Notes under the pieces: model-generated
Told to the model about the DNA's origin: nothing
What the model saw: the letters and a program-made list of their open reading frames with translations, nothing else
Database searches by the model: none
Shown: piece by piece, positions 3,500 through 55,130 of the stretch
How the letters are laid out: each line of letters opens with the position of its first letter
Numbering within the stretch: position 1 is the stretch's first letter
Made by a program: the position numbers and the translations under genes
Assembly: GCA_030390025.1 (NCBI GenBank)
Contig: CM059432.1
Location: forward strand, 5,332,001 to 5,396,000
DNA from: Squalus acanthias
Lineage: Eukaryota
DNA: 64,000 nucleotides
Direction: 5' to 3'

Positions 3500-4045
3500 G
3501 TCTCGCCTCCTGACTCCCCAAAGCCTTTCCACCATCTACAAGGCACAAGTCAGGAGTGTGATGGAATACTCTCCACTTGTCTGGATTAGTGCAGCTCCAA
3601 CAACACTCAAAGCTCAGTGCCATCCAGGACAAAGCAGCCCGCTTGACTGGCATCCCATCCACCACCTTAAACATTCACTCCCTGCACCACTGGCGCACCG
3701 TGGCTGCAGTGTGTACCATCTACAAGATGCACTGCAGCAACTCGCCAAGGCTTCTTCAGCAGCACCTCCCAAACTCGCGACCTCAAGGGCAGCAGGCGAA
3801 TGGGAACACCATCACCTCCAAGTTCCCCACCATCCTGACTTGGAAATATATCAGCCGTTCCTTCATCATTGCTGGGTCAAAATCCTGGAACTCCCTCCCT
3901 AACAGCGCTGTGGGAGTACCTTCACCACACGGACTGCAGCGGTTCAAGAAGGCGGCTCACCACCACCTTCTCAAGGGCAACTAGGGATGGGCAATAAATG
4001 CTGGCCTTGCCAACGACACCCACATCCCAGGAATGGATTAAAAAA
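3500..4045 (+). mobile_element. LINE-B 5'-truncated copy (3' end)
   Basis: ORF end ...LQRFKKAAHHHLLKGN* and tail gggcaataaatgctggcc...cacatccc. Confidence 0.85.
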
Positions 4046-13517: not shown

Positions 13518-15036
13518 TACGAATTGGGAGCAGGAGTAGGCCACTTGGCCCCTCAAGCCTGCTCCGCCATTCAATAAGATCATGGCTGATCTGATTACTC
13601 CACATTCCCGCCTACCCCCGATAACCTTTCACCCCCTTGCTTATCAAGAATCTATCTACTTCTGCCTTAAAAATATTCAAAGACTCTGCTTCCAGCGCCC
13701 TCTGAGGAAGAGAGTTCCAAAGACTCACGACCCTCTGAGAAAAAATTTCTCCTCATCTCTGTCTTAAATAGGTGACCCCTTATTTTTAAACAGTGACCCC
13801 TAGTTCTAGATTCTCCCACAAGAGGAAACATCCTCTCCACATTCACCCTGTCAAGACCCCTCGGGATCTTATATCACCTCTTACTCTTCTAAACTCCAGC
13901 AGATGCAAGCCTAGCCTGTCCAACCTTTCCTCATAAGACAACCCACCCATTCCAGGTATTAGTCTAGTAAACCTTCTCTGAACTGCTTCCAACGCATTTA
14001 CATCCTTCCTTAAATAAGGAGACCAATACTGTACACAGTACTCCAGATGTGGTCTCACCAATGCCCTGTATAACTAAAGCATAACCTCCCTACTTTTGTA
14101 TTCAATTCCCCTCGCAATAAACGATAACATTGTATTAGCTTTCCTAATTACTTGCCTACTAACCTTTTGCGATTCATGCACTAGGACACCCAGATCCCTC
14201 TGCATCTCAGAGCTCTGCAATCTCTCACCATTTAGATAATATGCTTTTTTATTCTTCCTGCCAAAATGGACAATTTCACATTTTCCTACATTATACTCCA
14301 TTTGCCAGATCTTTGCCCACTCACTTAACCTATCTATATCCCTTTGTAGCCTCCTTATGTCCTCTTCACAATTTACTTTCCTACCTATCTTTGTGTCATC
14401 AGCAAATTTAGCAACCATACCTTCATCCAAGTCATTTATATAAATTGTAAAAAGTTGAGGTCCCAACACTGATCCCTGTGGCACACCACTCGTTACATCT
14501 TGCCAATCAGAAAATGACCCATTTATACTTACTCTCTGTTTCCTGTTAGCTAGCCAATCTTCTATCCATGCCAATATGTTACCCCTACACCATGAGCTTT
14601 TATTTTCCGCAATAACCTTTGATGTGGCACCTTATCAAATGCCTACTGGAAATCTAAGTACAGTACATCCACCGGTTCCCCTTTATCCACAGCACATGTT
14701 ACTTCCTCAAAGAACTCCAATAAATTGGTTAAACATGATTTCCCCTGCCTGATTACCTTGAACTTTTCTATAATGCCCCTGCTATAACGTCTTTAATAAT
14801 AGCTTCTAACATCTTCCCTATGACAGATGTTAAGCTAACTGGTCTGTAGTTCCCTGCTTTCTGTCTCCCTCCCTTTTTGAATAAAGGAGTTACATTTGCT
14901 ATTTTCCAATCTAATGGAACTTTCCCCGAATCTAGGGAATTTTGGAAAATTAAAATCAACGCATCAACTATCTCACTAGCCACTTCTTTTAAGACCCTAG
15001 GATGAAGTCCATCAGGACCCGGGGACTTGTCAGCCC
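13518..15036 (-). mobile_element. CR1/HER1-like LINE RT fragment with tail
   Basis: [46 protein letters not shown]. Confidence 0.93.
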
Positions 15037-15406: not shown

Positions 15407-15841
15407 CAGGTCAGAGGCTAGGTATTCTGCAGTGAGTGTCTCACCGCCTGACTCCCCAAAGCCATTCCACCATCTACAAGGCACAAGTAAGGAGTGTGAT
15501 GGAATACTCTCCACTTGCCTGGATAAGTGCAGCTCCAACAACACTCGAAGCTCAAAACCATCCAGGACAAAGCAGCCTGCTTGATTGACACCCCATCCAC
15601 CACCTTAAACATTCACTCCCTCCACCACCGGCACACTGTGGCTGCAGTGTGTACCATCTACAAGATGCACCGCAGCAACTCGCCAAGGCTCCTTCGGCAG
15701 CACCTCCCAAACCCGTGACCTCTACCATCTAGAAGGACAAGGGCAGCAGGCGCATGGGAACTCCACCACCTCCAAGTTACACACTATCCTGACTTGGAAA
15801 TATATCGTCATTCCTTCATCGTCGCTGGGTCAAAGTCCTGG
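15407..15841 (+). repeat. Inverted duplicate arm of the LINE-B 3' region
   Basis: Reverse complement of 15959-16094 plus ~300 nt absent from that arm; shares private variants. Confidence 0.8.
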
Positions 15842-18800
15842 GATGTGGGCGTCGCTGACAAGGCCAGCATCCTTAATTGCCCATGAGAAAGTGGTGGTGA
15901 GCCGCCGCTGCAGTCGTTGTAGTGAAGGTACTCCCACAGTGCTATTAGGGAGGGAGTTCCAGGACTTTGACCCAGCGACGATGAAGGAACGGCGATATAT
16001 TTCCAAGTCAGGATAGTGTGTAACTTGGAGGTGGAATGGCTTTGGGGAGTCAGGCGGTGAGTCACTCACTGCAGAATACCTAGCCTCTGACCTGCTCTTA
16101 TTGCCACAGTATTTATGTGGCTGGCCCAGTTAAGTTTCTGGTCAATGGTGACCCCCAGGATGTTAATGGTGGGGGATTCATCGATGGTAATGCTGTTGAA
16201 TGTCAAGGGGCGGTGGTTAGACTCTCGTTTGTTGGAGATAGTCATTGCCTGGCGCGAATGTTACCTGCCACTTATCAACCCAAGCCTGAACGTCGTCCAG
16301 ATCTTGTTGCATGCGGGCATGGACTGCTTCATTATCTGAGGAGTTGTGAATGTCACTGAACACTGTGCAGTCATCAGCGAACATCCCCATTTTTGACCTT
16401 ATGTTGGAGGGAAAGTCATTGATGAAGCAGCTGAAGATGGTTGTGCCTAGGACACTGCCCTGAGGAACTCCTGCAGCGATGTCCTGGGGCTGTGATGATT
16501 GACCACCAACCACCACAACCATCTTCCTTTGTGCTAGGTATGGCTCCAGCCAGTGGAGTGTTTCCCCCCCCGATTCCCATTGACTTCAGTTTTACATGGG
16601 CTCCTTGATGCCACACTCGGTCAACTGCTGCCTTGATGTCAAAGGCAGTCACTCTCGCATCAACTCTGGAATTCAGCTCTTTTGTCCGTGTTTGGACCAA
16701 GGCTGTAATGCGGTCTGGAGCCGAGTGGTCTTGGCGGAACCCAAACTCTGCATCAGTGAACAGGTTATTGGTGAGTAATTGCTGCTTGATAGCACTGTCG
16801 ACGACACCTTCCATCACTTTGTTGATGATTGAGAGTAGATTGATGGGGTGGTAATTGGCCGGATTGGATTTGTCCTGCTTTTTATGGACAGGACATAACT
16901 GGGCAGTTTTCCACATTGTCAGGTAGATACCAGTGCTATAGCTGTACTGGAACAGCTTGGCTAGAGGCGCAGCTAGTTCTGGAGCACAAGTCTTCAGCAC
17001 GACAACCAGAATGTTGTCGGGGCCAATAGCCTTTGCAGTGCACTCAGCCATTTTTTGTTATCACGTAGAGTGAATCGAATTGGCTGAAGACTGGCTTCTG
17101 TGATGGTGGGGACCTCAGGAGGAGGCCACCATGCATCATCCACTCAACACATCTGGCTGAAGATGGTTGCAAACGCTTCAGCCTTGTCTTTTGCACTCAC
17201 ATGCTGGGCTCCACCATCATTGAGGATGGGGATATTCATGGAGCCGCCTCCTCCTCCCGTTAGTTGTTTAATGGTCCACCACCATTCACGACTGGATGTG
17301 GCAGGACTGCAGAGCTTTGATCTGATCTGTTGATTGTGGGATCGCTTAGCCCAGTCTATAGCATACTGCTTCCGCTTTTTAGCATACATGTAGTCCTGTG
17401 TTGCAGCTTCTCCAGGTTGGCACCTCCTTTTTAGGTGCGCCTGGTGCTGCTCCTGGCATGCTCTTCTACATTCCTTATTGAACCAGGGTTGGTTCCTTGG
17501 CTTGGTAATGGTAGAGTGAAGCATATGCCAGGCCATGAGTCATAACGGCACAGAAGGAGGCCATTCGGCCCATTGAGTCCGTGCCAGCTCTCTGCAGAGC
17601 AATCCAGTCAGTCCCATTCCCCCGCTCTATCCCTGTAGCCCTGCAAGTTTATTTCCCTCAAGTTCCAGTCTACCCTTCAAAACATTGAGTGTCTCCGCTT
17701 CCACCACTTCCGTCGGCAGCGAGTTCCAGGTCCTCACCACTATCTACGTAAAAAAGTTATTCCTCACATCCCCCCTGTATCTCTTGCCCAAAACTTTAAA
17801 TCTGTGTCCCCATGTCCTTGTACCATCAACTAGTGGGAACAGCCTTTCCCCGTCTAGCCTATCCAAACCAGTCATAATCTTGTACACCTCTATCAAATCA
17901 TCCCTCAATCTCTTTGCTCTAATGACAACAAATCCAGCTTCTCCAACCTGTCCTTGAGGTTACAGATTGTGGTGGAATACAATTCTGCTGCTGCTGATGG
18001 CCCACATCACCTCATCGATGCCCAGATTTGAGCTGCTAGATCTGTTCTGAATCTATCCCATTTAGCACGGTGGTAGTACCACACAACACGATGGAGGGTG
18101 TCCTCAGTCTGAAGACGGGACTTTGTCTCCACAATGACTGTACGGTGGTCACTGCTACCAATGCTGTCATGGACAGATGCATCTGCGACAGGTAGATTGG
18201 TGAGGATGAGGTCAAGTAGGTTCTTCCCCTCGTTGGTTCTCTCACCAGACTGGCAGCTATGTCCTTCATGACTCGGTCAGTAGTGGTGCTACCGAGTCAC
18301 TCTGGGTGGGTGACTTCAATGTCTATCACCAAGAGTGCATTCTGTGCCCTTGCTACACTCGGTGCTTCTTCCAAGTGGTGTTCAACATGGAGTACTGATT
18401 CATCAGCTGAGGGAGGGCGGTAGGTGGTAATCAGCAGGAGGTTTCCTTGCCCATTGCTTGACCTGAAGCCATGAGACTTCATGGGGTCCGGAGTCAATGT
18501 TGAGGACTCCCAGGGCCACGCCTTCCCAACTGTATACCACTGTGCTGCCACCCCTGGTGGGTCAGTCCTGTCGGTGGGCCCGGACATACCCAGGGGTGGT
18601 GATGGAGGAGTTTGGGACATTGGCTGAAAGGTATGATTCTGTGAGTATGACTATGTCAGGCTGTTGCTTCACGAGTCGGTGGGACAGCTCTCCCAATTTT
18701 GGCACAAGTCCCCAGATGTTGGTGAGGAGGACTTTGCAGGGTCGACTGGGCTGGATGTGCCGTTTCCGTAGCTGGTGCCGAGGTCCATGCCGGGTGGTCC

Positions 18801-19122
18801 GTCCAGTTTTATTATCATTGTTTCTCGTAGCGGTTTGTTACAACTGAGTGAGTGGCTTGCTCGGCCAGTTCAGAGGGCAGTTAAGAGTCAACCACATTGT
18901 TGTGGGTCTGGAGTCACACATAGGTCAGACCGGGTAAGGACGGCAGATTTCCTTCCCTAAAGGACATTAGTGAACCAGATGGGGTTTTACGACATTCCGA
19001 TAGTTTTATGGTCCCCATTACTGATACTAGCTTTTTATTCCAGATTTATTCAATTAACTGAATTTAAATTCCCCAGCTGCCGTGGTGGGATTTGAACTCC
19101 TGTCTCTGGATCATTAGTCCAG
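15836..19122 (-). mobile_element. Near full-length single-ORF non-LTR retrotransposon ('LINE-B', CR1/L2-group-like): tRNA-derived head + MER131-like body + decayed APE-RT ORF + short tail
   Basis: APE start KVLLTNIWGL...PDIVILTESYL at ~18735. RT motifs [38 protein letters not shown]-box GAGTTCAAATCC at 19088-19099 (minus). Frameshifted, with a CR1 insert at 17540-17955. Confidence 0.85.
17540..17955 (-). mobile_element. CR1 3' fragment nested in LINE-B
   Basis: CR1 tail; the LINE-B sequence resumes at 17956 with a TGAG duplication. Confidence 0.8.
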
Positions 19123-21103: not shown

Positions 21104-21885
21104 AGTAACATTCGCACCACACAAGTGCCAGGCAATGACTATCTCCAACAAGCGAGAGTCTAGCCACCTCCCCTTGATATTCAACGGCATTACCATCGCC
21201 GAATCCCCCATCCTGGGGGGGTCACCATTGACCAGAAACTTAACTGGACCAGCCACATCTATATTGTGGTTACAAGAGCAGGCTGGGTATTCTGCAGCGA
21301 GTGAATCACCTCCTGACTCCCCAAAGCCTTTCCACCATCTACAAGGCACAAGTCAGGAGTGTGCTGGAATACTCTCCACTTGCCTGGATGAGTGCAGCTC
21401 CAACAACACTCAAGAAGCTCGACACCATCCAAGAAATAGCAGCATGCTTGACTGGCACCCCATCCACCACCTTAAACATTTACTCCCATCACCACCGGCA
21501 TACCGTGGCTGCAGTGTGTACCATCTACAGGATGCACTGCAGCAACTCACCAAGGCTTCTTCGGCAGCACCTCCCAAACCTGCGACCTCTACCACCGATA
21601 AGGACAAGGGCTTCTGGTGCATGGGAACACCATCACCTACAAGTTCCCCTCCAAGTCACACAGCATCCTGTCTTGGAAATATATCGGCCGTTCCTTCATC
21701 GTCGCTGGGTCAAAATCCTGGAACTCCCTCCCGAACAGCACTGTGGGAGCACCTTCATCACACGGACTGCAGCGGTTCAAGAAGGCGGCTCACCACCACC
21801 TTCTCGAGGGCAATTAGGGATGGGCAATAAATGCTGGCCTTGCCAGTGATGCCCACATCCCATAAACGAATTTAAAAAAAAAAAA
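21104..21885 (+). mobile_element. LINE-B 5'-truncated copy
   Basis: VTFAPHKCQAMTIS...YKAQVRSVLEYSPLAW...HHHLLEGN, tail and poly(A). Confidence 0.88.
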
Positions 21886-30670: not shown

Positions 30671-31370
30671 GAGATAGGTTAAAAATATGTACTGAATTTT
30701 TATTTTTGGTCATATTGTACCAATTGAGTTGTTGCCGATACCTGGACAGGAAAAGTCGCAAGAAATTCAGAGAGAAGCTCTCTTATACTGTGCAGCACTT
30801 TAAGCTGACAAATCACCTGTCAAAACAAGGTAATTTAATCTAATATCTTCGACAGGAACACCCAGTTAAATGCTCGAAACAATGCAGCTATATGGTTGCG
30901 TCCAAACATATGATAAAGGAATGTTTCTGCTCTTTGATAGCTTAGATTTGAATGACTGGAGCTTGTCCACCTTTAGGCTTGCTGCATAAGAAGTATTGGG
31001 TAAAATATAACCTTCACAAATATTATCATGGTCAGTTTTACAGCACAGAAGGAGGTCCAATGCAACCTGTGCCACACCTTTGAAAGAGGCTGTCCACTTA
31101 TTCCCATTCCTTTGTTCTTTCCCCATTGAATCATAGAATGATGTAGCACAGAAGATGCCATTCGGTGCATCTTGCTGTGCCAGCTCTTCGAACGAGCTAT
31201 CCAATTAGTCCCACTCCCTGCCCTTTGCCTCATAGCCCTGCAAATTTTTCCCCTTCAAGTATTTATCCATTTCACTTTTAAAAGTTCTCTTTATAAAAAA
31301 AAATATATATATATATTTTTTTCAAATCTTTATCCAAATGTTATCTGGGCTTCCTTTGGTTCTTTTGCAG

Positions 31371-31559
31371 GTGCGTGGGAAACCAAAATCAGTAGCCGGG
31401 AAAAGCGACAACAACGCAGACGCGATAAAGGAATAAATGAAACTTCCTCCGTGGATTCCAGCCTTCCTGCCGTTGGATCTGAAGCGGTTCCAGCACAGCA
31501 ACAGACGTTGGCCTCAGCTGGGCTGGGTCCTCGGAAGAGCAAAGGAGTAGAAACTGCAG
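31371..31559 (+). CDS. mtdh: Metadherin coding exon: (G)AWETKISSREKRQQRRRDKG...GPRKSKGVETA
   Basis: ttttgcAG acceptor, CAG|GTTGGT donor, 189 nt, phase 1-1. GAWETKIS.REKRQQR.RDK is a hallmark MTDH motif. Confidence 0.95.
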
Positions 31560-32418
31560 GTTGGTTAGTAGAGGAATGACTTACTGATAATAAACACAAC
31601 ACTGGATTTTACTCTAGGAACCATAGACTGTGCGTGCAGGAAAATTATGGTAGAACCCAAGATGCCGTGCGATGAGGTAGAAGTATTGGACGCTAAGTTC
31701 AGCGCCATGTTGAGTTGTCGTAACATTTTATTGAGGGACTGTGGCCCACTCCCAGAAAGCAGTGCTTCTAGAACTTTCATCTTTTTTTTTTAAAGGCTAA
31801 ATTGTTGGTGGTTTCTAGATATTTTGGTCAGACTTACTCTGAATATTCTTCATAACCAAAGATCAGTAATTACAAATAACAAACACAAAAATAAGGGGCC
31901 GTATTTTGCGGCCCCTACGGGTGTGCATGCGCCCATCAGGGCCTCGCAAGTTCCGAGTTTAGGCATGCGCTAAAACCCAGAACTTGGGATGATCCGCATC
32001 CGCGGGCGGAGAGTTGGGCTATTTTGCCCAGCGAATGCCCGTGAAATTCTTACGCCTGGTAAAGGCAGACGTATGGGCCTGCTTTTACCAGCGTAAGAGT
32101 TTTAAAAAAACAGAAAATAAAATTTTATCAATAATTTATACATTTAAAAACCTGTGAAATAAGGTAAGTTTATTTTTGGCCTCCTTAAAACATGTAAATT
32201 CATTTTTCAAAATATTTTAAATAAATTTAATTAAATGCCATTTTAATTAATTTTAAATGTGATTTTTTTTTTAAGTGTAGAGGTATTTTTGGGGGTATTC
32301 TCATTCATACTTATGGGGTTTCGGTACATGGGGAATCCCGATAAGAATGAATGGGGATCCCCTTCTGTCATTCGTTGGGCCGGCCCACGTGATCCAGGGG
32401 CGCTCGTGAAATGTACGC

Positions 32419-37441: not shown

Positions 37442-39838
37442 ATTTCCCTCCCCCCCCCCCAATTGAATAGCTTGCCATATCTCACTGTCTAGACTCAAAA
37501 ATCAACAACGGCCACTTGGGAAAGGTATTGGAGGGCATGCCCCATCGAGGACTTGACACTCCAGAAGAGGAGGAAGGTGGAACGTTGGCAGGAGAAGGAG
37601 GAAGAAAGAAGTTACGATAAAGTCTTGCTGGCTAGTGGGTTTTTTTTTAAGGAAATTTCTCTTGATGGAGGAACTATTTCGATTCTAAAGTATTCCCCCC
37701 ACAAAAACTAGCGAAAGTAAATCATTTAAAATTGGTCGGGATTCATGATCACTAACCAGAGACCCATGTTGAAAGTGAATGTCGGCTTGTATTCCCTGGA
37801 ATATAGAGGGTTATGGGGTGATTTGATTTGAGGTTTGTAGGATTTTGAAAGGAATTGATAGGTTAGATAGAGAGAAACTTTTTCTGCTGGTGGGGGGAGT
37901 CTAGGACGAGGGGACATGGCCTTAAAATCAGAGCCAGGCCATTCAGGAGAGAAGTTAGGAAGCATTTCTTCACGCTAAGGGTGGTAGAAGTGTGAAACTG
38001 TCCCATAAAAAGCAGTAGATGCTAGCTAATAATTTTCAATCTGAGATCGATAGATTTTTGCTCGCCAAGGATATTAAGGGATATGGAGCCAAGATGGGTG
38101 GATAGAGTTGGAAAACAGATCAGCCATGATCTCATTGAATGGCGAAACAGGCTCGAGGGGCTGAATGGCCTCCTCTTCCTATGTTCCTATGTCAGGTAAG
38201 GACTTGCTCGAGCTTCTATGTAAAGTTTTCCACTTGTGCCTATTAAAAAAGAGCCTTGTGGAAGTGTACCTATTCAGGTTTTCCAGTTCACAAGTGATCA
38301 GTAGGTGGGGATGCCTTCGCCTAGCTGCTGTTGCAACACGTGAATTTATAATTCCTAGCCTAAATAATTATCCTAAGAACACAAGTCCAGGAGCAGAAAC
38401 GGCCACTCAGCACATCAAAGCTGATCCCTTGATCCTGAAGCAGATCAGGTTCAAACAAGATAAATATTGGAGAAAAAATTGCAGGGCTATGGGGAAAGAG
38501 TGGGGGGGAATGGGACTAACTGCATTGCTCTTCGAAAGAGCCGGCGCAGACTCGATGGGCCGAATGGCCTCCTCCTGTGCTGTACCATTCTATGATTGGC
38601 TGGTCCTTGGGGTTTCCAGTTAGCACTGAACTTTTTACTGATGCTATGTCAAGATCAGTGCCAAGTTTGGTATCCAATATTTGGATACTAATCCCCACTC
38701 CTTGTTATGATTTCACCAATCTCTCCTCAGTGGTCTTTTTCCTTCAACGCTCTTTGTTGAATTTACTCCTGGCCATCCGATGCCACTGTAGGGTTTCTCT
38801 GGCCTGATCGCATGTATGCATTCAATCACCTGAGGTGAAATAGCCCGCAATAACATTTGCGGAGGTGCCTTCGAACTGTAGATAATTGTGAAAGGCTAAG
38901 GCATATTTAACAGCTGCTGTTTTGAGGTACATCTAGAACTACGTACTTTACACTAGTGTATCCTTACATGGCTCTATTATGCAGCCATAGCAAGTTGCAG
39001 TTATAATTGCTGTTTTCCCCAGCGTGGTTCTAAACTGTGTTTACTAGTAATAGAATTCCCTCTAGGATTTATTTTAGGGATCTGTTCTCTATGTTGCTCT
39101 GCCAATATTAACTCCAAAACCAATGGGAGCTGAAAGCAAATGCAGTTTTTTTAAAATGTTCGAACTTGCATATCGCGAGTGTCTTGTTTTTTTTTCCCCC
39201 TTTCTTCCTGTTTGTCTTTCTACCTTTTCATTGTTTAATGTTCTGATTCCTTGTACATAAATGAAAGAATAAGAAATTTATACTCTGCCTTTATCACATA
39301 TCTTGAATTTGCAATTTGTTTCTGTCTGTTCTGCAGCTGACTTGATGTACTATAAGTTGATTCTTATCTGTGCCTTTGGCTATTTCCATCGTCTGATGGT
39401 AGTTTTTCTACGCTAACTTTTTTTCATTTGCTATGATCCATCTGTCTGAATCTGGCCCCCTAATTGGTGCTGTTTTTTTTAAAAAGCTGGATAAGATAAA
39501 GACAGATAGAGGGTATCACTAGAAATAGCAACAGTTTCATTCGTCTGTTATTCTCCCAGTAGTGGTTAACCCAAGAGTCGTGTGCCTGCCTTGGTAAATG
39601 TTAAGTACCAAGTTCAAATATTTAACATTTGAAATCGGAATAATTGCTACGTACCAGATTTTACCTCCGTTTTAAATATCTCTCATTTGAAGAACCTTAA
39701 AATAAAGCCCTTTAGAATTACTGTCCTTAAATCTTCACTGTGTATTTATATCATACAGACTTAACAGAAGTCAAAGCTGAATTGCCTCAACAGTTGTTCG
39801 GATTGATTTGATTTCCTATTTTGCCCGTCGTTCTCTAG

Positions 39839-39963
39839 ATGGAATTTCGACAGCTGACCCGAGCTCGGACTGGAACGCCCCGACAGAAGAGTGGGGAAAT
39901 TGGCAAGTGGAGGAAGCTGCTTCAACTGCGCAGCCTGAGGAGACTGTTGCAGAAGCTCAGAAG
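39839..39963 (+). CDS. mtdh: Metadherin coding exon carrying the SND1-binding peptide: (N)GISTADPSSDWNAPTEEWGNWQVEE...AEAQK
   Basis: ttctctAG acceptor, AAG|GTTAGT donor, 125 nt, phase 1-0. DWNAP.EEWGNW is near-identical to human MTDH. Confidence 0.96.
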
Positions 39964-40492
39964 GTTAGTCGCCCTGGCCACTGTGGCGGAGTTCTCCTCC
40001 TGCGACCTTCACTTCACACCACTGTGAAAGGTGACACGCTTGGCTCAACAGTGGGAATGCCTGTTGGCAAATGCTCATTGATGCGCATCTGTATTTTTGG
40101 CGTGAGTTCAAATAGCGATGAACTGCAACAAGGACCCTGTGGCCTTTGTGTCCTTTAGCATTTTACTTATGATTACATAGGATATACAGCACAGAAACAG
40201 GCCATTCGGCCCAACCAGACCATGCTGGCATTTATGCTCCACTCGAGCCTCCTCCCATCTTTCCTCATCTAACTCTATCAGCATAACCCTCTATTACTTT
40301 CTCCCTCGTGCTTATCTAACCTCCCCTTAAATGCATCTATACTATTTACCTCAACCACTCCCTGTGGTAGCGAGTTCCACATTCTCACCACTCTTTCGGT
40401 AAAGAAGTTTCTTTTGAATTCCCGATTTGATTTCTTGGTGACTATCATATTGATGGCCTCCAGCTTTGCTCTTCCTCCACAAGTGGAAACAC

Positions 40493-50279: not shown

Positions 50280-50710
50280 CACGGTGGCATAGTGGTTAGC
50301 ACTGGTGCCTCACAGCGCCAGAGACTCGGGTTCGAATCTGACCTCGGGTGACTGTCTGTGTGGAGTTTGCACATTCTCCCCGTGTCTGCGTGGGTTTCCT
50401 CCGGGTGCTCCGGTTTCCTCCCACAGTCCAAAAATGTGTGGGTTAGGTTGATTTGGCTATGATAAATTGACCCTTAGTGTTAGGGGGGATTAAATATGTG
50501 GGGTTATGGGGATAGGATGGGATATGTTAGGGGGAATTAAATACGTGGGGTTACGGGGGTAGGGTGGGATATGTGTACTGTGGGGATTAAAGCAGGGACA
50601 GGGTACTGGATTTGGATGATCAGCCATGATCGTATTGAATGGCGGAGCAGGCTCGACGGGCCGAATGGCCTACTCCTGCTCCTAGATTCTATGTTTCTAT
50701 GTTTCTATGT
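50280..50710 (+). mobile_element. V-SINE (HE1-like) with CR1/HER1-type tail, inserted in an L2 fragment
   Basis: tRNA head TGGCATAGTGG / GGTTCGAATC; V-domain tgtggagtttgcacattctccccgtgtctgcgtgggtttcctccgggtgctccggtttcctcccac; tail gatcagccatgat...ggcctactcctgctcct and (ttctatgt)n. Confidence 0.88.
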
Positions 50711-51475: not shown

Positions 51476-52752
51476 AGCTAGGTGGGAAAGTAAGCTGTGA
51501 GGAGGACAGAGTCTGCAAAGGGATTTGGACAGGTTAAGTGAGTAGTCAAGGAGGTGGCAGATGGAGTATAATGTAGGAAAGTGAGGTTATTCACTTTGGT
51601 AGGAAGAATAGAAAAACAGAATTTTTTAAATGGTGAGAAACTATTAAATGTTGGTGTTCAGAGAGATTTGGGTGTCCTTCTACACGAAACACAAAGTTAG
51701 CAAGCAATTAGGAAGGCAAATGGTATGTTGGCCTTTATTGCAAGGGGGTTGGAGTGCAAGAGTAAGGAAATTTTTTTATATTCATTCACGGGATGTGGGC
51801 GTCGCTGGCAAGGCCAGCATTTATTGCCCTTGAAGATGGTGGTGGTGAGCTGCCCTCTTGACAACTGAGTGACTTGCTCGGCCATTTCAGAGGGCAGTTA
51901 AGAGTCAACCACATTGCTGTGGGTCTGGACTCACGTATAGGCCAGACCAGGTAAGGACGGCAGGTTTCCTTCCCTAAAGGACATTAGTGAACCAGATGGG
52001 TTGTTACGACAATCCAGTAGTTTCATGCTCACCATTACTGATACTAGTTTATTATGCCAGATTTATTTAATTAACTGAATTTAAATTCCCCAGCTGCCGT
52101 GGTGGGATTTGAACTCTTGTCTCCAGATCATTAGTCCAGGCCTCTGGATTGCTAGTCTAGTAAAGTAACCACTATGCTGCATTTGTACAGGGCTTTGGTG
52201 AAGCCACACATGGAGTACTCTACAGTTTTGCTCTCCATACCTAAGGAAGGATATTCTTGCCTTAGAGGGGGTGCAACAAAGGTTCACTAGATTGATTCCT
52301 GGATGAGAGGATTGTCCTATGAGGAGAGATTGAGTAGAATGGGCCTATACTCTCTGGAGTTTAGAAGAATGTGAGGTGATCTCATTGAAACAAGTAAAAT
52401 TTTGAGAGGGTTTGACAGGGTAGATGCTGAGAGACTATTTCCCCTGGCTGGAGAATCTAGAACTAGGGGGCATAGTCTCAGGATAAGAGGTCGGCCATTT
52501 AAGACTGAGATGAGGAATTTCTGCGCTCAAAGGGTTGTGAATCATTGGAATTCTCTGCCCCAAAAGGGATGTAGAGTTGAGTATATTCAAGGCTGAGGTA
52601 GATAGATTTTTGGACACTAAGGGAATCAAGGGATATGGGGATAGGGCTGGAAAGTGGAGTTGAGGTAGAAGATCAGCCATGATCTTATTGAATGGCGGAG
52701 CAGGCTCGAGGGGCCGAATGGCGTACTCCTGCTCCTAATTCCTGTGTTATGT
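51476..52752 (+). mobile_element. CR1/HER1-like 3' fragment interrupted by a MER131-like SINE
   Basis: Parallels 24260-25025. Confidence 0.85.
51781..52180 (-). mobile_element. tRNA-headed MER131-like SINE with LINE-B tail, nested in CR1
   Basis: A-box-like AGCATAGTGG and B-box (52105-52116); same body and tail. Confidence 0.85.
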
Positions 52753-54717: not shown

Positions 54718-55130
54718 TTAATTTATGGGATGTGGGCGTCGCTGGCAAGACAAGCATTTATTGCCCATCCCTAATTACCCTCGAGGAGGTGGTGGTGGTG
54801 AGCCACCGCCTTATACAACTGAGTGTCTCGCTAGGCCATTTCAGAGGGGCAGTTAAGAGTCGACCACATTGCTGTGGGCCTGGAGTCACATATAGGCCAG
54901 ACCGGGTAAGGACGGCAGATTTCCTTCCCTAAAGGACATTAGTGAACCAGGTGGGTTGTTAAGACAATCCGGTAGTTTCATGGTCACCATTACTGATACT
55001 AGCTTTTTATTCCAGATTTATTTAATTAATTGAATTTAAATTCCCAGCTGCTGTGGTGGGATTTGAACTCACGTCTCCGGATCATTAGTCCAGGCCTCTG
55101 GATTACTGGGCCAGTGACATGGGTTACCAT
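54718..55130 (-). mobile_element. tRNA-headed MER131-like SINE with LINE-B tail
   Basis: B-box GAGTTCAAATCC; body ggttcactaatgtcctttagggaaggaaatctgcc...cactcagttg joined to the LINE-B 3' end. Confidence 0.85.

Follow-up and report, generated by a model that had tools for sequence, protein, structure and literature searches.

The 64,000-nucleotide (nt) stretch of the Squalus acanthias genome analysed here (contig CM059432.1 of assembly GCA_030390025.1, positions 5,332,001 to 5,396,000; called the window below) contains several copies of LINE-B, a long interspersed nuclear element (LINE). Full-length copies of this element fetched from the genome begin with a tRNA-like head, and the same 5' terminus is found in a short interspersed nuclear element (SINE) that is composed of LINE-B parts. 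From this terminus to its terminal T run the LINE-B ancestor had no sense-strand run of four or more Ts (T4+), the signal at which vertebrate RNA polymerase III (Pol III) stops. Transcription of the LINE-B retrotransposition template by Pol III is the best single reading, although we put it slightly short of an even chance. It is ranked first because a promoter-type head stands at the exact 5' terminus, is common with the SINE, and is followed by a T4-free body. The head and the body fit copying by Pol III but do not prove it. The structural evidence, namely the head and the terminus common with the SINE, appears stronger than the statistics of the T runs.

The tRNA-like head of LINE-B

The 5' end was read from 20 near-full copies, in which complete elements measure 3.2-3.3 kb. 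Sixteen of them start with GGGAAY GG TAGCGTAGTGG, and the flanks directly upstream of GGGAAY are unrelated. The type-2 promoters of Pol III consist of an A box with the consensus TRGCNNAGTGG, about 8-20 nt from the start, and a B box of the type GGTTCGANNCC, 30-60 nt downstream of the A box. The LINE-B head matches both: most of the 16 copies that bear it have TAGCGTAGTGG at nt 9-19, and GAGTTCAAATCC occupies nt 73-83, 53 nt past the A box. The anticodon arm is duplicated. The Rfam tRNA model gives the head 21 bits (E 0.09), which is below the gathering score of 29, and one of 13 heads was called by ARAGORN, as tRNA-Ile. As far as its sequence can tell, the head is derived from a tRNA, is like a type-2 Pol III promoter, and is situated at the exact 5' terminus of full-length copies.

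The main copy in the window is incomplete. Besides an internal deletion (Table 1), it has lost its first ~30-47 nt, including the A box, and keeps the B box GAGTTCAAATCC at ~19100-19088 on the minus strand. Neither Rfam at the gathering score nor ARAGORN found a tRNA match in the window; most of the head is missing from this copy.

The partner SINE

The SINE is ~410-435 nt long and joins ~280-330 nt from the start of LINE-B to ~65-150 nt from its end. Among twenty further copies fetched from the genome, the full-length ones start at the GGGAAY terminus of LINE-B, and copies with a readable tail end in GAAT(T)n(A)n, as LINE-B does. Read in this way, the ~430-nt SINE is LINE-B without its open reading frame (ORF), the two having the 5' terminus, the head, a body of ~280-330 nt and the 3' tail in common.

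The heads of the two elements can nevertheless be told apart. A LINE haplotype defined at four sites is present in 8-9 of the 16 LINE heads and in none of 20 SINE heads, the SINE sample having been chosen by similarity to one window copy; intermediate forms exist. A head haplotype specific to the LINE argues that the head was inherited with the LINE body and was not borrowed repeatedly from SINE RNA. It also argues that the masters were transcribed from the first base of the head over many generations.

Absence of T4+ runs from LINE-B

According to the preliminary description, TTTT is absent from the sense (minus) strand of the main LINE-B copy in the window. The count was reproduced exactly. 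Over the two pieces of the copy (1,699 and 1,167 nt, 2,866 nt in all) the plus strand contains no AAAA, 14 TTTT (9 and 5), 8 CCCC and 11 GGGG runs. Thus the sense strand, with T at 0.21, has 0 T4+ runs, 14 A4+, 8 G4+ and 11 C4+. The repeat of 416 nt nested in the copy has three A4+ runs, as described, and is missing from other LINE-B copies, in which position 17956 is joined straight to 17539. In the CR1 fragment, said to have at least six sense-strand runs, seven were counted. The three plus-strand fragments of LINE-B were also found free of TTTT; they had been offered as extra support, but they are copies of the same family region and not independent samples.

The lack of T4+ extends to the family. 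Seven internal T4+ runs, located at 5 positions of the reference, were counted in the 126,907 aligned nt of 51 LINE-B copies (the window copy, 20 found by similarity of the 5' end and 30 by Pfam RVT_1 score), 44 of which are free of such runs. The runs were mapped copy by copy onto one reference copy, with no consensus built, and no position is common to more than two of ~48 copies. Since the runs are private or near-private, the LINE-B ancestor, as far as such mapping can reconstruct it, had no sense T4+ from its first nucleotide to its terminal T run.

The description had put the chance expectation at 4-5 runs. This is correct for independent and identically distributed (i.i.d.) bases, which give 4.4 runs with a probability of none, P(0), of 0.010 (4.1-5.0 runs and P(0) 0.003-0.015 over the i.i.d. 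calculations). With protein and codon usage fixed the expectation falls to about 3 runs and P(0) rises to ~0.02-0.08. Shuffling of synonymous codons in 50 ORFs of at least 250 codons (59.8 kb) gives 2.96 runs per 2.9 kb (P(0) ~0.05), and in five composites that tile the ORF once 2.1-2.9 runs (P(0) 0.024-0.083). The decayed copies themselves show 0.44 T4+ per 2.9 kb, every one of these runs being private. The ratio of observed to expected runs under the synonymous null is 1.03 for T2, 0.69 for T3 and 0.15 for T4+, and for runs of four or more it is 1.08 for A, 0.99 for C and 0.94 for G.

Other LINEs of the same genome do not lack T runs. Three CR1 ORFs (T ~0.25) have 9, 12 and 10 T4+ runs, compared to 7.4, 10.6 and 9.5 expected under the synonymous null. 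An apparently intact L1-like ORF2 of 1,306 amino acids (aa), with T = 0.208 and 19% TTT among its Phe codons, has 9 compared to 6.35 expected, and a second copy has 8 compared to 6.32. Sixteen other fragments resembling reverse transcriptase (8.9 kb) have 34 compared to 28.4 under the i.i.d. null. The full ORFs among these comparators represent two families only, CR1 and L1-like. The lack of T4+ is thus specific to T and to LINE-B, and is atypical of co-resident LINEs, including one with matching T content and codon bias. The possibility raised in the preliminary description that ordinary LINEs of similar skew commonly have no runs is not borne out by the L1-like ORF.

The L1-like LINE is GC-rich (L064, L065 and further places) and has an open ORF1 of 395 aa in addition to its ORF2. 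Several of its copies are paired 7.17 kb apart, e.g. at C4:122058965/122066134, C11:65379635/65386806 and C4:50968271/50975461, which suggests tandem arrays or a repeated target.

The 3' end

LINE-B ends in ...CCCATAAACGAA, followed by 1-11 Ts and an A run. Four or more Ts directly precede the A run in 9 of 44 tails of LINE-B and the SINE together, the rest having 1-3 Ts, and in 5 of 18 fetched SINE tails. By its sequence, this 3' end looks like a Pol III terminator with an A tail attached. AATAAA occurs in these tails only where GAAT adjoins the A run. The flanks beyond the A run are unrelated between LINE-B copies.

LINE-B as a coding element

Judged by its copies, LINE-B is an extinct and extremely abundant non-LTR (long terminal repeat) retrotransposon of ~3.25 kb, with a single ORF of ~965 codons for an endonuclease and a reverse transcriptase. 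The frame opens near nt 334 and closes ~60 nt short of the 3' end; it was assembled from open frames of 250-685 codons that overlap between copies. Two ORF pieces of the window copy match Pfam RVT_1 (E 3e-9 and 1.7e-12), and LINE-B accounts for every one of the 30 best RVT_1 loci that were fetched. The endonuclease region, in the degraded pieces of the window, has no Pfam match at E<=0.01, and is 22-29% identical to the N-terminal domain of co-resident CR1 (tblastn, E 1e-10 to 6e-13). Identity to co-resident CR1 ORFs is only 27-31% over ~570-600 aa, so that LINE-B does not closely resemble CR1 in its reverse transcriptase. The 5'-truncated copies, both in the window and at the 30 reverse transcriptase loci, have one common tail, which is the typical pattern of a LINE. 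Head-less or diverged relatives of LINE-B were not found when its protein was compared with the fetched DNA by tblastn; the matches were frameshifted LINE-B pieces or had at most 45% identity and belonged to other families.

A loose first-look search of the 3.7-Gb assembly gave 13,929 candidates for the 5' kilobase of LINE-B and 298,661 for a reverse transcriptase fragment; neither figure is a copy number, and the candidate copies of the family are of the order of 10^5. The best 150 candidates were scored in the genome searches, and all were LINE-B. In genome-wide matches to the reverse transcriptase fragment, most LINE-B copies have a TGA within the same stretch of 213 aa, a pattern that fits loss of CGA codons through CpG decay, the family being old.

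The start of translation is not evident. In 16 of 20 copies (L009-L028; LINE-B nt ~300-480, window ~18840-18700, minus strand) no in-frame ATG separates the upstream stop from the point at which the endonuclease domain begins. One long N-terminal frame has its first Met only beyond this domain. The domain is joined by two different upstream frames in different copies, and an ATG is present in the third frame.

A coding stretch of 39 nt (LINE-B query nt 786-824, window 18299-18337, minus strand) also matches the opposite strand, with 90-97% identity, near the same place; 34 of the matches listed are of this kind. It looks like a near-perfect hairpin or palindrome of the ancestor that has degraded in the window copy.

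An apparently intact frame of 971 aa (L060; also L059) was rejected as an intact LINE-B ORF. LINE-B is cut there at ~2676 and fused in frame to the 5' region of a CR1, and T4 runs lie in the CR1 part. The two loci (G000 C53 and C3445) have one common structure, with a tandem satellite of ~27 nt upstream.

Contigs from four sequencing runs (X1, X2, X9 and X10; not on record as RNA), each of a different organism, placed on the LINE-B copy L020, cover the element at a likeness of at least 88%. They are short and family-level, have a 3'-biased depth and a SINE-type joint that skips ~2.8-2.9 kb, and are silent on starts, strand and polymerase. The pair of LINE-B and SINE is probably common to several related species.

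Layout of the window

The copies of LINE-B and its SINE in the window, and the repeats compared with them, are listed in Table 1.

Table 1. LINE-B, its partner SINE and other repeats discussed in the text (window coordinates)
Feature	Positions	Strand	Runs of four or more
LINE-B 5' part: 5'-truncated tRNA-like head, body common with the SINE (to ~18840), endonuclease coding region	17956..19122	-	0 sense T4+
Nested unrelated repeat interrupting LINE-B (labelled CR1 in the preliminary description)	17540..17955		3 A4+ on the + strand
LINE-B reverse transcriptase (Pfam RVT_1), C-terminal region and 3' tail; frameshifted, ~300 nt deleted near 16033	15841..17539	-	0 sense T4+
Inverted 5'-truncated LINE-B 3' fragment adjoining the main copy; holds the ~300-nt segment deleted there	15407..15840	+	0 T4+
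5'-truncated LINE-B 3' fragment	3500..4040	+	0 T4+
5'-truncated LINE-B 3' fragment; ends in GAATTT, then A run	21104..21870	+	0 T4+
Partner SINE copy: tRNA-like head, LINE-B positions 1-283 and LINE-B tail	51791..52139	-	
Partner SINE copy, second; 3' end is TTTT, then A run	54728..55093	-	
CR1-type LINE fragment (RVT_1), comparator	13518..15036	-	7 sense T4+ in 1.5 kb

Another SINE-like head of tRNA origin starts the plus-strand sequence at 50283 (GGTGGCATAGTGGTTAGCAC...GGGTTCGAATC); it differs from the one above and is unrelated to the partner SINE beyond the tRNA part. Two open frames on the plus strand match Pfam LYRIC, the MTDH/LYRIC family, at 31142-31576 (E 1.9e-12) and 39781-40155 (E 3.2e-11). 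Exons and introns of an MTDH-like gene are thus likely to lie within the window.

Proposed transcription by Pol III and its alternatives

Under the reading ranked first, Pol III would make the LINE-B retrotransposition template from the internal promoter of the head, as for the SINE. Masters that gained an internal T4+ terminator would stop yielding full-length RNA and would be lost, leaving a lack of T runs that is specific to T and to the family. A body free of internal T4 is a necessary condition of this model, and LINE-B has one. More speculatively, the LINE-B protein might arise by unconventional initiation on this uncapped RNA, or might be supplied in trans by occasional Pol II read-through transcripts. 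The preliminary description took the missing runs as independent support for a LINE transcribed by Pol III. The T4-free body and the head at the 5' end uphold this in part; the evidence is, however, weaker than was stated, and the window copy itself lacks the A box. The purging of terminators proposed there would presuppose terminators in an earlier form, and no head-less relative came to light in the tblastn comparison with the fetched DNA.

A number of points weigh against transcription by Pol III. Pol III naturally makes uncapped RNAs of a few hundred nt, and translation of one as long as 3.2 kb would, to our knowledge, have no precedent. No intact LINE-B ORF was found among the fetched copies, and the longest frames listed for LINE-B alignment-pattern matches, which were not fetched, comprise ~815 of the ~965 aa. 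Only about a fifth of the 3' ends carry four or more Ts, and most have too few to terminate. An automated scan found no exact target-site duplication of at least 6 nt at the junctions of 13 head-bearing LINE-B copies, and reading of the flanks gave plausible ones round head and tail in two of the 13 (L016 and L025), both short. LINEs and their deletion derivatives are taken as Pol II units by Kojima (2018, PMC5786205).

The T-run statistics also weigh against it, being modest because the 51 copies amount to samples of one ancestral sequence; the test is 0 runs observed against ~3 expected. A first-order Markov null expects 1.7-2.2 runs (P(0) 0.10-0.15). A second-order null, which preserves trinucleotides, expects 0.6-1.2 (P(0) 0.33-0.52) and so makes zero common. 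Since TTT itself is scarce, some of the signal is already built into this null. The depletion is graded, as T3 is affected too, and has no sharp threshold at four. The choice of Phe codons, proposed as a check in the preliminary description, is not special: TTT makes up 23% of Phe codons, compared to 26% TAT for Tyr and 28% CAT for His, so that the preference for TTC is no stronger than that of the other two. The T-run signal therefore lies in codon context and not in the choice of the Phe codon.

These statistics leave room for chance and composition. LINE-B may be an ordinary Pol II LINE whose 5' untranslated region (UTR) was captured from the SINE or became its source. Its low-T codon usage with C endings, together with an overall shortage of TTT, would leave ~1-3 T4 runs to be expected, zero being luck. 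The head would then be a passenger, a Pol II or chromatin-opening element, or an RNase P-type 5' processing site of read-through transcripts, comparable to the ribozyme of R2 that resembles that of hepatitis delta virus (HDV). We regard this explanation as doubtful, yet as the main competitor. The Markov nulls, the low T3 and the Phe usage on a par with Tyr and His all speak for it, and a nominal p near 0.05 is unremarkable where many features were inspected, as in the preliminary description. Furthermore, SINE bodies derived from LINE 5' UTRs are described, without Pol III LINEs, by Kojima (2018, PMC5786205). On the other hand, comparators that match LINE-B in T content or codon bias show no such depletion, and in LINE-B only T runs are depleted. 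The coincidence of its 5' terminus with that of a Pol III SINE and the LINE-linked haplotype of the head are likewise at odds with chance.

Selection might have acted on T runs for another reason, because they form U-rich destabilising or splice/polypyrimidine signals in a Pol II transcript, or because internal U tracts interfere with target-primed reverse transcription by pairing with the A tail at the 3' end. The graded depletion without a step at four would suit such selection, and the terminal A run could indeed be sequestered by internal U tracts. CR1 and the L1-like LINE, however, tolerate T4+ runs at or above expectation, and we consider this explanation unlikely.

Nesting, by which LINE-B inserted site-specifically into SINEs or SINEs landed at LINE 5' ends and the T4 count would be irrelevant to Pol III, is largely refuted and very improbable. 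It can draw on the scarcity of clear target-site duplications. Against it, the head-bearing copies all have their junction at one position, and neither a SINE tail nor an A run separates body from ORF. The unrelated sequence after the 3' A run is no SINE remainder, the 5'-truncated window copies are not preceded by the 5' part of a SINE, the ORF continues into the tail common with the SINE, and the head haplotype is specific to the LINE.

Relation to known elements

Elasmobranchs have another such pair, the HE1 SINE and the HER1 LINE, with a common 3' tail. The ~430-nt SINE is a standard member of the SINE2 class partnered with stringent LINEs: it is short and non-coding, which LINE-B is not, has a tRNA-like head with A and B boxes, a tail identical to the 3' end of the LINE, and no internal T4. 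Unlike in other pairs, LINE-B itself carries the head at its 5' terminus, and SINE and LINE differ only by the ORF. According to Borodulina and Kramerov, SINEs of the T+ class, such as rodent B2, reportedly end in a Pol III terminator followed by an A tail. A T run directly before the terminal A run is found in a part of the tails here as well, whereas most LINE-B and SINE copies have 1-3 Ts.

R2 is co-transcribed by Pol I and released by an HDV-like ribozyme. What is known of R2 and proposed for LINE-B is independence from a Pol II promoter of its own, an uncapped RNA and unconventional initiation; in LINE-B neither the endonuclease domain nor the sequence ahead of it has a conserved AUG in frame (16 of 20 copies). 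The two differ in the polymerase, in the 5' structure and in insertion behaviour, LINE-B being dispersed at ~10^5 candidate sites.

Shark SINEs with L2 tails, e.g. SacSINE1 with L2-2, are described by Luchetti et al. (2017, PMC5499810). SINEs composed of a head, a LINE 5' part and a LINE 3' part are reported by Kojima (2018, PMC5786205), only RTE and Vingi having contributed 5' regions. Such SINE bodies are traced there to bipartite non-autonomous LINEs joined to a small-RNA head, and their composition is that of the SINE described here. The LINEs treated there are head-less and assumed to be Pol II elements, whereas the region common to LINE-B and its SINE includes the tRNA-derived part and is present on the full-length LINE. 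One-off chimeras of LINE-1 with U6, tRNA or Alu RNAs, described in a preprint (Law and Burns 2025, 10.1101/2025.02.02.635956), join a small Pol III RNA to a LINE 5' end, which is a plausible origin of the fusion of head and LINE. Those chimeras are single insertions dead on arrival, whereas the LINE-B fusion was the amplifying master with its own head haplotype.

Significance

LINEs are known from textbooks as Pol II elements, or in the case of R2 as Pol I co-transcripts, and SINEs as Pol III elements that borrow only the tail of a LINE. A LINE that has the promoter head of a SINE and is free of terminators over 3.2 kb would blur this division. A literature search brought up no LINE reported to carry a Pol III or tRNA head, Repbase reports and most subscription journals being beyond its reach. 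Tentatively, and with confidence somewhat short of even, LINE-B may be the first described LINE family amplified as a Pol III unit. It would be an ORF-carrying 'giant SINE' with an internal promoter of the tRNA type at the 5' end, a T4-free body of 3.2 kb and a terminal T run, from which an internal deletion directly gave one of the major SINEs of the genome.

If this is true, the pair offers a simple route to the birth of a SINE, by a deletion in one step. Pol III would make kilobase-long retrotransposition templates in vivo, and the known range of Pol III product lengths would be extended. LINE-B also poses the question of how an uncapped RNA without an evident AUG is translated, or whether the protein is supplied in trans. 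Even without Pol III, an abundant family that has a tRNA-derived SINE as its 5' UTR is a useful case of the renewal of LINE 5' ends.

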